Assembly (NCBI GenBank): GCA_046350855.1
Contig: JAXLZM010000001.1
Span: 14,104 to 78,103 of the forward strand
DNA length: 64,000 nt
Origin: Candidatus Anderseniibacteriota bacterium
GTDB lineage: Bacteria > Patescibacteriota > JAUYIX01
Direction: 5' to 3'
How positions within the stretch are numbered: position 1 is the stretch's first letter; every line of letters starts with the position of its first letter. The notes below the pieces were generated by a model. The model did not search any database, was not told the DNA's origin, and saw only the letters and a program-made list of their open reading frames with translations. A program made the position numbers and the translations under genes. Below, in pieces: positions 55,198-61,059 of the stretch.

Positions 55198-56340
55198 ATG
55201 ATGGCGAAAAAACGAAGTTCCAAAAGGTTCTTGACCAAGGAGAGCTTGAGTGCCGGACGTGAAAGTATTGATTTTGGGATGAAGGACTTAAATAACCTGC
55301 GAGACATGCCCAATGTCAGGAATAAGCCATGGACAGAGGACTGGGCGACAAGCCGCGTCGGAGGATCGAAGGTTATCTTTTTGGAACTTAATGTTTTATA
55401 CAACTTAGTCAATTGCAAAAATCCAGAAGAGCGAGTCGCCTACAGAAAGCTTGATCAAGTTTTAAAGCGAGGAGTTGAAAAAAGGCAGATTGTGTGCGTC
55501 TCCTCTATGGCCCAGTTGCTTGAAGTTTTTAAACATGGATCTTTAGAGAAAAGAGTAGCAGTTTCTGCAACTTGCGATCTATTAACAAAGAGAGTGGGTG
55601 TGTTTTCTCCAGATGCACAAGCATATGCAGAGTTAGTTAATGCTGCTGCTACTTTTTTCTCGGGTAATTCAATAAAGCCAAGGTTTATCAACCCATTTAG
55701 AAGTTGGATTGAGTGCTTGGTGCCATTTCATGAAATTAAATACCCGCAAAAGTCAGTTTTTGATGATCACCGGGCACGCGCACGGCTTGAAGAGATGCTA
55801 AGCGATTTCAATTTTCATGAACTAGTGCCGCATCTTGAGATAAGCCAACTTCTGGGTCCCTTCCCCACAACTGATTCAATTGGCAAGCGTTTCAGTGGTT
55901 TAGGAAAAAGTGAGATAGAGAATGAGCTCGTAGCAAACTTTATCCATAATAAAAAGTGGTTAGTAGTGCTCGCCATGAGCGACGCGGTACAGATGATCAC
56001 AAAAGCAAATATAAAAATGATCGCACCAGAAGGCGCTTGGCTCTTTAATTTGATAACGTCGTCCGCGTTTGTGAATTACTATATTACACTGACCGCTAAA
56101 TTACTTAGCGAAAAGAAAAATACCGAATGGTCCCATAGCTTATTCGACAATACGAATGCTGCAAACGTCTTAAATTACGTGGATTTTGCCCTTTTAGATG
56201 CGGAAACCGTAGACTTGATAAAGCAGACGCATATAGTTCCAAAGGCGATCGTCTTTTCAACACGTGCCGCAGGGATTTCAAGTTTTATTTCGGCCATAGA
56301 ACAGTTGATCGGCTCAACTCATCTGGAAAGCTTCAAATAA
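55198..56340 (+). CDS. Hypothetical protein of 380 aa with low GC and no recognisable domain. It neighbours the Type IIG enzyme.
   Basis: It is a long intact ORF with a K/N/F-rich composition typical of horizontally acquired DNA. Confidence 0.5.
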   Translation: MMAKKRSSKRFLTKESLSAGRESIDFGMKDLNNLRDMPNVRNKPWTEDWATSRVGGSKVIFLELNVLYNLVNCKNPEERVAYRKLDQVLKRGVEKRQIVCVSSMAQLLEVFKHGSLEKRVAVSATCDLLTKRVGVFSPDAQAYAELVNAAATFFSGNSIKPRFINPFRSWIECLVPFHEIKYPQKSVFDDHRARARLEEMLSDFNFHELVPHLEISQLLGPFPTTDSIGKRFSGLGKSEIENELVANFIHNKKWLVVLAMSDAVQMITKANIKMIAPEGAWLFNLITSSAFVNYYITLTAKLLSEKKNTEWSHSLFDNTNAANVLNYVDFALLDAETVDLIKQTHIVPKAIVFSTRAAGISSFISAIEQLIGSTHLESFK

Positions 56341-56370
56341 ACGCACTGGATATGATAAATCAATGGATTC

Positions 56371-59300
56371 TTATATCTTAATAGACTTATCAATCTCCCC
56401 CATCACCCGCTTAGTCTCAACCAGAACCTTAATGATCCGTTGATAGTGCGCAATATCATCTGAACTCAACTCACGTCCTTTTCGATCTTTGAGCCATTTC
56501 TGAGCGGGTTTGTAGCCACCAATATAGAACTCCCAGGCGGTTTCCGGCACACCGCCAAAGTATTGCTCTTTATTGATCCAGGCTTTGCCCTCTTTAAACG
56601 TCGGCTTTTCAACCATATTTGAGCCGGCAATCGGATAGGTCGTTATAAATTCATTCACATTAGGTGAACTCATCAGGTGCAGCTCACGGAGTTCTTTGCC
56701 GAATTCAACTAGCTTTTGAAATTGCTTTTTGTCCTTTGGGTAAGGAACTCGAGGGAAATCTATTTTAAGAAATTCTTTGTATTTATGCCTGTAATATAAC
56801 GAGTGAACCACGGCATAAACATAGTCAAAGATATCTTCTGGCTTGGTTTTGCCGGCTAAACTTTCAATTTTATCTACAATCGTCTTATCTAAGTTTGGAT
56901 CTTTACTACCATCTCTTTTGTAGACATAGAGTGGGAAAATGTAGCCTACTTCGCTCGTTTGAAGGGAAACAGCACATCTTTCGGCAATATTTTCGCTAAC
57001 CAATACGTGGTGCCATTCGGGGAAGGATGAGACTCTTTTTGTTGTTAAAAGGGCAATGTTCTCTTGAGTTAGATGCTTCATTACCTCACCTCGGGGGTAA
57101 GCAATTATTCCTTTTGTTTTTCCGGAGTAAAATGTCCATCGTTTATCGAATGGACGGTACAAGATCTGTGTATCAGCAGCATCCTCAAGATCTTTTTTGG
57201 CACTACTAAAATTCCAATCCCGTGAGTTTTTTATCCCGTACTGGCTGAATACTTTTTCCTCATCAGCAGACTCTATATCCGCTCGAACCCTTTTCAAATC
57301 TGAATGCGTAAACTGGATTACTAGGACGTCCTTTTGAGTTTCTATGCCCGATGTGCTTATAGAGAACAGATCATCAACTTTGAATCCCCTAGAATATTCT
57401 TTTTCAAGGCCGAAATCCTTGGGCACGAAAAAGTAGTGCGGTTCTACAACATCCAATTGTGCCCACTCGGTCTTAGCTAAATTCATCGAACCGAGCTTTG
57501 AAAGCTTTTCCATTTGCTTGCCATAGAGCTCAGCAAAGTGTACAGCCCCTAGTCCTACCTTTTTTTGCAAGTGTCGGGCAAAAATCGTAATAGCAACACC
57601 TTGCTGAATTTCGAAAACGTTTTCGTCCTTCCCGCCATTAGGAGCGATCTCTTTTTTCTTTGTACTTCCGTGTAAGTTCAGAACATAGATATCATCAAAG
57701 GTCTCCAGTAGGTGTTTTCGCATTTGTCTGTGCGTGTTCCCGTCTATAAATGAATTGTTGGTGATCATTGCAACGACACCCATTCCATTCTTATTTATCA
57801 GATTTTCAGCAAAACGAATGAATTTAATATAATCGTCGTCCAAATTAATCTTCTTCTCATTGAGACCCTGTTTGTAGACCTTGATCATATTCTGGATCCA
57901 CTCGCCCTTATTTGACGAGCTAACGTCATACGGCGGATTCCCGATCACAACCATAATTGGCAGTTCACTTTTGACCTTAGAAGCTGCTGCTGACTCCTCA
58001 GTCAGCCACTGACTCATAAAGAGGTTAGGCACCTCGGTCACGCCTTGCTCGAGCGAATTTGTGAGATAGACTCCCAGACGCTTATCCGTGTCTTTATAGC
58101 CGGTCTCGCCGAGGGTGATACCGAGTTTGAGGTGCGCCATGGTGTAGCTCGCCATCATGAGTTCAAAGCCGTGTAGACGCGGCAAGAGATGCTCTTTGAC
58201 GTAGCTGGGCCACTGACCCTCTTGGTTTTTGAACCGTTTGCGAATCTCCTTGATGACTTCGACCAAAAAGGTTCCGGTACCTGCGGCTGGATCGAGAATC
58301 TGCACACGATGCACGTCTTTAGTGACTTCCTTTACCGCCTTGCCACGCTTATCCGCATTTTGCGTCTTGAACTTCCACGGGATCGTACTCGTATCGGCTA
58401 GTCCATCCTTAATCCCAAAGTCGCGTTTAAGGATCTCATCCACCGATCGCACGATAAACGACACAACGGGCTCGGGCGTGTAGTAGACGCCCCGACTCTT
58501 GCGTAGCTTGGGGTCATACTCTTGCAGGTAGGTCTCGTAAAAGTGCAGAACCGGGTCTTTGGATTTCTGTTCAAACTCCTTGTGCATGATCACACTGACA
58601 TCCGCCGCGCGATAGGCCTGAATCAAATCGTCGATGATCCACGCTAGGCGGGGTTCAAAACTCGAACCTGCGATGTGACCAAAAAACTTACGAAGCAACG
58701 GGTTGGCGGGCGGCAAGAGATCCTGCGCCTCATGCCGACTAAAGTTTTTGAGCGAATCGTCAAAGTAGCGCGCAACAAAGAGGCCGTACGTAAGCGTCTG
58801 CGTGTACATGTCGGCGAACTGCTCGATCGTGAGATCGCGGATGAGCACCTGCTTAAAGGCCTGATACTGCCCCTGGATGTCGCCGGTCTGGTCCTGCTCC
58901 TTAAGGAGGCCAATCACCACGTCACGCATGATTCGGCTCTTGTGGGCCATGATCTCCGCGAGTTGCTTAGCCGATTTGATCTTGGTCGGCGCTATCTGAA
59001 CGAACTGCGTGACCAGGTCAGTAAAGCGCTTAAGGTCTGCTTCGGAGGTTTTGTCGTCGAGGGTGAGCTTGGCGTACTCCTCGTCATGCAAGTAAAAGCG
59101 GAACTCGCGGTAGTTGGTGAGGATAAGCGAGTCAAAGGCTTCGAGGTAGCGCTCAGCTTGCTTTTGGACGGCTTTGTCGGAGAGGTCGACGGTAATGTCC
59201 TTGGCTTCTATGTAGCCGCACGGGACTTCGCCTTGTTTGATGAGGAAGTCTGGCGCGTTGTGGCCAACTTTTGCTGGGTCGTTGATGACTGAGTATTTGT

Positions 59301-60490: not shown

Positions 60491-60660
60491 TCCGTGTCCC
60501 TCTTTCTTCGTAAAGCGAATTAATACGGGTGAACTTGATCTTATAGTAGTAGATCGGCATTAGGCTCTTGAGAGCTCTGAATCGTCACACAAGTAAAACT
60601 TTTTTTGGTTTGGTTTCTGAATCTGCCGTATCCGAGAGTGAAAAAATTTGCATTTGTATG

Positions 60661-61059
60661 TTATCGAGTTACTCTTCGAATTTCTAACCTCGTCTTCCCC
60701 TTCGTGTTCTGCCCGGGCGCCTGAAAGTTGATCAGCAGGCCTTTGTTCAGCCCGAGAATGCGGAGGTAATTGCGAAGTTGTTGCTCCTCTTTGTCGCCGA
60801 GTTTGCTAGTGGCTTTGAGCTCGAGGATGAGGCGGTGCCGGACAGCGCCGACGATGAGGTCGGGGTAGCCCTCGCCGACGTAGTGCTCTTTATAGGTGAG
60901 CTCGACGACTTTTTGGGCTTGGTATGGGATTTTGGCAAGGCGTAGGCCGACGGCCATGGCGTTCTCGTAGACTTTTTCGTCAAAGCCGGAGCCGAGGCGT
61001 TTGTAGACGTCGTTTGCGAGGACGGTGATGGTTTTGATGAGGTCTGTGGGGGTTGGCAT
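60661..61059 (-). CDS. GxxExxY-family protein (PD-(D/E)xK nuclease fold).
   Basis: It has the GFDEKVYENAM (G-x-x-E-x-x-Y) motif near the N-terminus and a downstream PDL..ELK region. It is 132 aa. Confidence 0.7.
   Translation of the reverse strand: MPTPTDLIKTITVLANDVYKRLGSGFDEKVYENAMAVGLRLAKIPYQAQKVVELTYKEHYVGEGYPDLIVGAVRHRLILELKATSKLGDKEEQQLRNYLRILGLNKGLLINFQAPGQNTKGKTRLEIRRVTR

Follow-up and report, generated by a model that had tools for sequence, protein, structure and literature searches.

Why should the gene for a single-chain restriction-modification (R-M) enzyme begin within the last codons of an upstream gene for a hypothetical protein, and are the two products joined in function or only in position? 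The question is raised by a locus in a 64,000-nucleotide (nt) stretch of the metagenome-assembled genome (MAG) of a Candidatus Anderseniibacteriota bacterium (contig JAXLZM010000001.1, positions 14,104 to 78,103 of the forward strand), hereafter the window, in which a Type IIG/IIL enzyme gene is overlapped by an upstream gene, orfA, and flanked by two further genes, orfB and a GxxExxY gene. We propose, with a probability of roughly one half (0.5), that orfA and the enzyme constitute a two-layer operon combining DNA restriction with a latent HEPN ribonuclease (RNase), whose gene would be transcribed together with that of the R-M enzyme and which would serve, like PrrC, as a second-line or abortive-infection effector.

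The 3′ end of orfA reads ...AAT GGC TGA and the 5′ end of the enzyme gene ATG GCT GAC, so that the 8 nt ATGGCTGA belong to both genes. A strong Shine-Dalgarno sequence (AAGAGGG) precedes orfA, and none is found in the AAACGAAAAAGAA-ATG leading into the enzyme gene. Because the enzyme gene lacks a Shine-Dalgarno sequence of its own and overlaps orfA, the junction is likely one of translational coupling, and translation of the enzyme probably depends on that of orfA. A preliminary description of the locus had reported the four open reading frames (ORFs), the overlap of the orfA stop with the enzyme start codon and a good ribosome-binding site before orfA, from which it concluded that the genes are co-translated; all of these features are present, and the lack of an enzyme Shine-Dalgarno sequence fits co-translation.

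The downstream gene of the pair encodes, by its sequence, an intact bifunctional single-chain Type IIG/IIL enzyme of DrdV or Type-ISP-like kind. As in other Type IIG/IIL enzymes, one polypeptide unites an N-terminal PD-ExK nuclease, a gamma-class N6-adenine methyltransferase (residues ~355-576) and a target recognition domain (TRD), here of the Type_ISP_C family (684-1008), and the motifs PD57...E72-A-K74, DPAAGTGTF (at 377) and NPPY (at 495) are intact. Pfam matches comprise Type_ISP_C (267 bits, 2.2e-79), N6_Mtase, MmeI_Mtase (49 bits) and Eco57I, with a weak HSDR_N match at the N-terminus, and the PADLOC model REase_MTase_IIG (PDLC03610) is matched at 944 bits. The earlier view of a stand-alone Type IIG enzyme as the core of a defense locus is upheld. 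The NCBI name, 'type ISP restriction/modification enzyme', implies a protein of ~1,400-1,600 amino acids (aa) with a helicase-like superfamily 2 (SF2) ATPase placed between nuclease and methyltransferase; at 1016 aa, without a ResIII or Helicase_C match, and aligning with LlaGI/LlaBIII only from their residues 731/895 onwards, the enzyme is not Type ISP but single-chain Type IIG/IIL. Its nearest solved structures in a phmmer search of PDB sequences are LlaBIII (4xqk), 7lo5 (DrdV) and LlaGI (5ffj), all matched through the methyltransferase-TRD part only, over ~550-630 residues; the overall layout is that of a ~1,000-aa Type IIL enzyme. The previous label 'MmeI-family' is imprecise. MmeI, too, is a single chain of nuclease, gamma-methyltransferase and TRD, and MmeI_Mtase is matched, but membership of the MmeI family proper was rejected: the TRD is Type_ISP_C, neither the helical spacer nor the TRD nor the C-terminal domains of the MmeI type could be detected, and the PDB sequence matches at E<=1e-3 do not include MmeI.

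The upstream gene, orfA, has no match in Pfam, NCBIfam, PADLOC or PHROGs, and a word-index protein search returned only three distant homologues. An exhaustive profile search at E<=1e-3 recovered 1,290 cluster representatives (50% identity), 393 of them at E<=1e-30, with nearly all of the 1,290 being 370-400 aa long; every member that carries a source name is 'hypothetical', and none has a Pfam domain. When 68 members were scanned against Pfam no significant family emerged, the permissive-threshold matches, all of them sub-threshold, being to DUF4209 (two members, E 0.0048), HEPN (two members, 0.078) and HEPN_Apea (one member, 0.011). The PADLOC model of the phage-defense candidate PDC-S39 gave weak local matches in 12 of the 68 (best E 2.5e-5 to 5e-6), confined to model positions ~458-564 of 595. 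We also considered orfA as a member of PDC-S39 and discarded the assignment, since orfA is unmatched by PDLC05011/PDLC05012 and its relatives match one C-terminal domain only. Neither a whole-family profile nor one restricted to the C-terminal domain matched any PDB sequence, and no curated HEPN sequence model is matched significantly by orfA.

It is the conserved motif and the modeled fold that point to a HEPN domain. HEPN domains are defined by a conserved R-x4-6-H, commonly with a polar N/H/D following the arginine (PMC3710099). In alignments of 28, 52 and 68 sequences, R317, H322 and G323 of the orfA segment S316-R317-H318-S-Y-A-H322-G323 are invariant and the position after the arginine is H or N; the family consensus S-R-[H/N]-S-x-x-H-G is thus the R-x4-H signature of HEPN domains, with the usual polar residue. 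The remaining invariant positions are G166-W-F-P-F170, E248-G249, F294, L340 and Q344. A structure model of orfA (predicted template modeling score, pTM, 0.80; predicted local distance difference test, pLDDT, 90-98 in the C-terminal 150 residues) indicates an N-terminal beta-rich domain (~32-125), a helical linker with the invariant GWFPF and a C-terminal HEPN domain, whose four-helix up-down bundle can be superimposed on solved HEPN domains; a model built from 4 sequences had a pLDDT of 47 and was not used. A Foldseek comparison of the model with the PDB gave no significant match, and the best non-significant matches were HEPN proteins. Listed likenesses of orfA among HEPN proteins are the toxins 7ae2, 8xdj and SO_3166, AbiA, the sacsin HEPN domain, Csm6, RnlA and LsoA. 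Foldseek searches of BFVD matched a metagenomic siphovirus protein to the C-terminal 210 residues of orfA (E 1.6e-7) and aligned a phage DUF4209 protein over 239 columns (probability 0.98, E 0.11), and hints relating the N-terminal domain to PNPOx-like split barrels or SAF domains were weak and not significant.

From motif and fold we consider it very probable that orfA carries a C-terminal HEPN domain, and we predict it to be an RNase toxin or abortive-infection effector. The preliminary description had found no known domain in either of the two uncharacterized proteins and had asked for HHpred or structure prediction of both; the absence of database matches holds for both, and the model now adds a HEPN-like domain to one of them. 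The roles then suggested for orfA, as a specificity or anti-restriction factor, and likewise that of a controller protein, were dismissed, because its fold is HEPN and it has neither a helix-turn-helix nor a TRD. Two proteins of one metagenomic phage in BFVD, Siphoviridae sp. ctpbe1 (A0A8S5NQ77 and A0A8S5NQ38), match orfA, one of 217 aa in the C-terminal part (E 1.6e-7) and one of 136 aa more weakly (E 0.058); the pair may be a split, phage- or prophage-borne copy of the family.

Tight association with a restriction gene recurs in a minority of the orfA family, in which members adjoin unrelated restriction genes in three Type IIG contexts, one Type III-like context and one HsdR-like context. 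In loci L001-L004, a 1031-aa Type IIG enzyme (Eco57I and TaqI_C domains) is followed after 46 nt by an orfA-family gene and then by an NmeDI_C gene. L133 and L196 hold a different Type IIG enzyme, of 1054 aa (HSDR_N, Eco57I and TaqI_C), and the orfA-family frame resumes at most ~20 nt after the enzyme stop. At L147, the order is a methyltransferase, a ResIII helicase-nuclease and, 18 nt on, the orfA-family gene. The family gene at L215 encodes P0032, among the three closest relatives of orfA, and has a 4-nt overlap with a downstream gene whose product begins in an HsdR-like manner: its first 35 residues (1186-1290, where the contig ends) resemble those of type I HsdR proteins, and 15 of the 20 tblastn matches listed, each of them weak, are annotated type I R subunits. 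The enzymes of L133 and L196 are 55% identical and their HEPN partners 33%; the HEPN proteins of L001 and L133 are 43% identical and their enzymes ~30% over 230 residues; and the nearest relatives of orfA are others still. Since enzyme and HEPN divergences are discordant between loci, these pairings apparently arose independently. The orfA-family gene of L133 (3238-3444) is frameshifted at about codon 70, through either pseudogenization or an assembly error.

Table 1. Features of the locus, in window coordinates
Feature	Position	Strand	Basis
orfB, 380 aa	55198..56340	+	ORF present; NCBI name: hypothetical protein
Type IIG/IIL restriction-modification enzyme, single chain, 1016 aa	56371..59421	-	Pfam, PADLOC, intact motifs
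orfA, 358 aa	59414..60490	-	Family profile and HEPN fold/motif; NCBI name: hypothetical protein
GxxExxY / PDDEXK_3 small protein, 132 aa	60661..61059	-	TIGR04256, PF13366; NCBI name: 'GxxExxY protein'
Overlap of orfA stop (TGA) and enzyme start (ATG), 8 nt, ATGGCTGA	59414..59421	-	Read from sequence
orfA Shine-Dalgarno sequence AAGAGGG, 7 nt upstream of ATG	60498..60504	-	Read from sequence
Codons for R317-H318-S-Y-A-H322, HEPN R-x4-H catalytic-type motif	59525..59542	-	Read from sequence

Linkage to R-M operons is established for at least 16 HEPN clades, in a set catalogued by Anantharaman et al. in 2013, and the experimental paradigm is PrrC-EcoprrI, a HEPN-domain anticodon nuclease whose gene lies inside a Type Ic R-M operon and which a block to restriction releases (PMC3710099). 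Like PrrC, orfA is an R-x4-H HEPN protein in the same operon as a restriction enzyme; placement within an R-M operon, characteristic of PrrC/RloC-type nucleases, applies to orfA through its 8-nt overlap and to a minority of its family. Unlike PrrC and RloC, it has no N-terminal ABC/Rad50-like ATPase and no P-loop, but a beta-rich domain of ~100 aa and a helical linker instead; its partner is a single-chain Type IIG enzyme rather than HsdMSR; and it lies upstream of, and overlaps, that partner. The DUF4209 or C6orf70-type HEPN family (PF13910) also occurs in R-M related operons (PMC3710099), and it resembles the orfA family through weak Pfam matches in two of 68 members and the structural alignment with a phage protein; with no family match at the Pfam threshold and none at all for orfA, the relationship is remote at best. 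The family members matching the C-terminal domain of PDC-S39 include the Type IIG-linked ones of L133 and L196, but PDC-S39 proteins are ~600 aa long and uncharacterized.

On the two-layer reading, the core of the system would be the two-gene operon, with orfA first and the translationally coupled, intact Type IIG/IIL enzyme second. The enzyme, judged by its domain architecture and intact motifs, would provide the first line by methylating host DNA and cutting unmodified incoming DNA. The putative active site of orfA (R317/H322) would be held silent by its own N-terminal domain, by the enzyme or by both, and orfA would cut host or phage RNA once an infection breaks through or the R-M enzyme is put out of action. 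The ORFs, their overlap, the family, the fold, the motif and the gene contexts are observations, and RNase activity, toxicity, a role in defense and cross-talk with the enzyme are predictions. This second, abortive-infection layer is modeled on PrrC-EcoprrI and the catalogued HEPN-R-M linkages, with which the proposed logic shares DNA restriction as the first response and RNA cleavage as a fail-safe.

Base composition bears on how the locus was assembled. The window has a guanine-cytosine (GC) content of 0.532, orfB 0.419 and orfA 0.432. The enzyme gene is mosaic: its 5′ half, encoding nuclease and methyltransferase, is host-like (GC 0.523; third-position GC, GC3, 0.66), and its 3′ TRD half (GC 0.408, GC3 0.43) is continuous with orfB. 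The GxxExxY gene is host-like throughout (GC 0.554, GC3 0.71). The earlier statement that all four genes are clearly lower in GC is therefore accurate for orfB, orfA and the 3′ half of the enzyme gene, but not for its 5′ half or the GxxExxY gene. Other genomes match different parts of the enzyme, L032 over residues 1-401 at 91% and L081 and L083 over the last 100 residues only, at ~80%, which together with the mosaic GC suggests replacement of the TRD region by recombination. The low GC shared by orfB and the TRD half suggests that the two may have been acquired together through recombination; the low-GC patch of orfA, and its absence from all relatives of the enzyme, indicate that it was acquired separately from the conserved 5′ half. 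L081 (Parcubacteria MAG JAZDNR010000034.1) also has, side by side within 262-4279, genes for a ResIII helicase-nuclease (841 aa) and an unknown protein (388 aa) and what is left of a Type_ISP_C C-terminus (104 aa). From end to end, this ResIII protein shares 46% identity with the one preceding the orfA-family gene of L147.

A number of results weigh against a functional link between orfA and the enzyme. A scan of one genome per species yielded 80 loci with relatives of the enzyme (29-91% identity, mostly from MAGs and across many phyla); of the full-length copies among them, 37 have 1.2 kb or more of upstream sequence and 33 as much downstream. In their six-frame ORFs neither the orfA-family hidden Markov model (HMM) nor phmmer queries of orfA, orfB and the GxxExxY protein found a homologue of any of the three (0/80), so the enzyme does not need orfA. 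An all-against-all BLAST of the 80 loci revealed no recurring partner among the immediate neighbors, and in the closest relative (L032, Parcubacteria) DNA similarity starts only within the enzyme coding region, the upstream genes being unrelated. By these comparisons the enzyme family stands alone and orfA is a local addition. The role of conserved partner of this enzyme family was accordingly ruled out for orfA; the orfA family recurrently, though rarely, adjoins restriction genes. The orfA family was sampled through nine contexts from exact-protein look-ups and 120 metagenome loci retrieved with a degenerate gapped DNA pattern, 116 of which were HMM-confirmed (87 clusters at 80% identity). 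Most members are solitary, in mobile elements or defense islands with heterogeneous neighbors (134 Pfam families in 150 flanking genes, the commonest being phage integrase and HTH_3 with three each); a Type IIG neighbor occurs in only two of the 116 metagenome loci, 66 of which extend 2.5 kb or more beyond the gene on one side; and P0015 and P0128, two of the closest relatives of orfA, do not adjoin R-M genes. The predominance of solitary members and the independence of the enzyme favor mere neighborhood. They also underlie the main rival explanation, a somewhat less probable one, in which two independent defense modules lie side by side, orfA being a self-contained single-gene HEPN abortive-infection gene or toxin and the overlap a by-product of insertion, with no cross-talk; the variable neighbors of the family, the lack of a conserved partner for the enzyme and the position of orfA as a separate low-GC patch beside the host-like 5′ half of the enzyme gene all agree with it. 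What it accommodates poorly is that, in at least five independent contexts and with unrelated enzymes, family genes lie tightly against restriction genes or overlap them, and that the enzyme lacks its own Shine-Dalgarno sequence and probably depends on orfA for translation. It is the coupling and the recurrent tight junctions that favor a functional link between orfA and the enzyme; orfA is a real gene and probably a defense-related one.

The surroundings of the family also allow orfA to be read as an addiction or competition toxin of a plasmid or integrative element, or as a counter-defense factor, rather than as an anti-phage effector. Family members lie next to TrfA, beside F-type tra genes, in a Stenotrophomonas integrative element with a C5 methyltransferase, DUF932 and YqaJ, and on rhizobial megaplasmids; others are found with SNF2/NOV_C, AAA_15 and DUF1156 in a defense island, with ThiF/E2 and AbiEii, and with an integrase, DUF3800 and AAA_15. 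We regard a toxin of mobile elements as improbable, as no adjacent antitoxin-like gene recurs, the family occurs in 0/50,697 phage records and only 8/72,556 plasmids, and several of its contexts are classical defense islands. Translational coupling could also speak for an accessory, specificity or activating subunit required by the enzyme, but the enzyme has a complete TRD of its own (the Type_ISP_C match), none of its 80 relatives is accompanied by the gene, the orfA fold is HEPN and neither a TRD nor DNA-binding, and the family pairs with unrelated enzymes or, mostly, occurs alone; such a subunit is very improbable. That all four genes form one undescribed composite defense system, as the preliminary description had ventured, draws on their proximity and on some low GC in three of the four segments. 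It is contradicted by the synteny comparison above, the criterion that the preliminary description had itself set, and we hold it to be scarcely credible: orfB lacks homologues and converges on the enzyme gene, the GxxExxY gene has host-like GC and is separated from orfA by 170 nt, and neither recurs in the 200 related loci (80 of the enzyme and 120 of the orfA family).

The two flanking genes show no sign of belonging to the system and are best regarded as bystanders. orfB, earlier described as divergent, runs tail-to-tail with the enzyme gene, their stop codons 30 bp apart. It has no match in Pfam, NCBIfam, PADLOC, PHROGs, the PDB, a word-index search of 5.8 billion protein clusters, plasmids, phages or IMG/VR, and its 90%-identity cluster otherwise contains only a 45-aa fragment from another sample. 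That it is a real gene, or was one until recently, is almost certain: our own base-composition estimate puts the chance of 380 consecutive sense codons, given 42% GC, at ~1e-10 per frame. GC is lower at second codon positions than at first and third. Its sequence contains no R-x4-6-H and no D...ExK pattern; by eye only, its 'VIFLELNVL' was likened to a PIN-domain N-terminus. The GxxExxY gene had been recognized as a PD-(D/E)xK-fold gene, and it is by sequence a standard member of the common TIGR04256/PDDEXK_3 family (TIGR04256, 98.5 bits with a cut-off of 35; PF13366, 104.6 bits with a cut-off of 22, 5.2e-30); it never accompanies either partner. A promoter and terminator scan of the locus returned no more sites than shuffled sequence, and neither tRNA genes nor an integrase were found as markers of the island borders. 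Two further ORFs look spurious, one of 205 aa antisense to the GC-rich half of the enzyme gene (58675-59292, +) and one of 146 aa overlapping the GxxExxY gene out of frame (60747-61187, -). A DUF3800 protein is encoded at 52179-52796 (-), 2.4 kb from orfB, and a DUF3800 gene also adjoins the orfA-family member of L014.

Further neighbors were noted in some contexts of the orfA family. On Agrobacterium plasmid pAtLMG305 (L217), 16 nt separate the family member at 7112-8269 from a downstream gene annotated as Swt1-family HEPN, and a Shedu SduA gene lies close by; this defense island may contain a dual-HEPN module. In L103 and L212, which belong to two distinct clusters, a small downstream gene overlaps the stop of the orfA-family gene by 4 nt and resembles, by eye only, a GIY-YIG nuclease (KYWVYIVQC..GTYYTGYT). 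Two unrelated contexts (L008, 85-3171; L218, 530-3895) have a DnaE2-like DNA polymerase III alpha gene within a few kb of the orfA-family gene, and on the Rubrobacter plasmid that carries such a pair a lexA gene is also nearby. Apart from these, L081 (5617-8253) encodes a GyrB with an intein, an Intein_splicing/Hint domain standing between the GyrB and Toprim domains.

The locus is a new example of a known HEPN/R-M arrangement, its parts being a Type IIG enzyme of one chain and a member of a predicted HEPN family that had no annotation. A bolder and, in our estimate, doubtful generalization is that the ~380-aa GWFPF / SR[HN]SxxHG family represents unrecognized, widespread HEPN 'guards' that can be plugged into Type IIG, Type III-like and HsdR-like enzymes and whose RNase would fire once phage anti-restriction neutralizes the restriction enzyme, the guard at this locus also controlling enzyme translation through coupling. 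For a family of more than 1,000 clusters that is blank in every curated library, the analysis predicts a function, that of a HEPN RNase with R317 and H322 as catalytic residues, and it removes orfB and the GxxExxY gene as false leads. Single-chain Type IIG enzymes, in a minimal-genome bacterium of the Candidate Phyla Radiation, would thereby join the restriction systems with a HEPN back-up and, should the coupling prove functional, the two genes would form a compact and convenient model of how failure of R-M is sensed.

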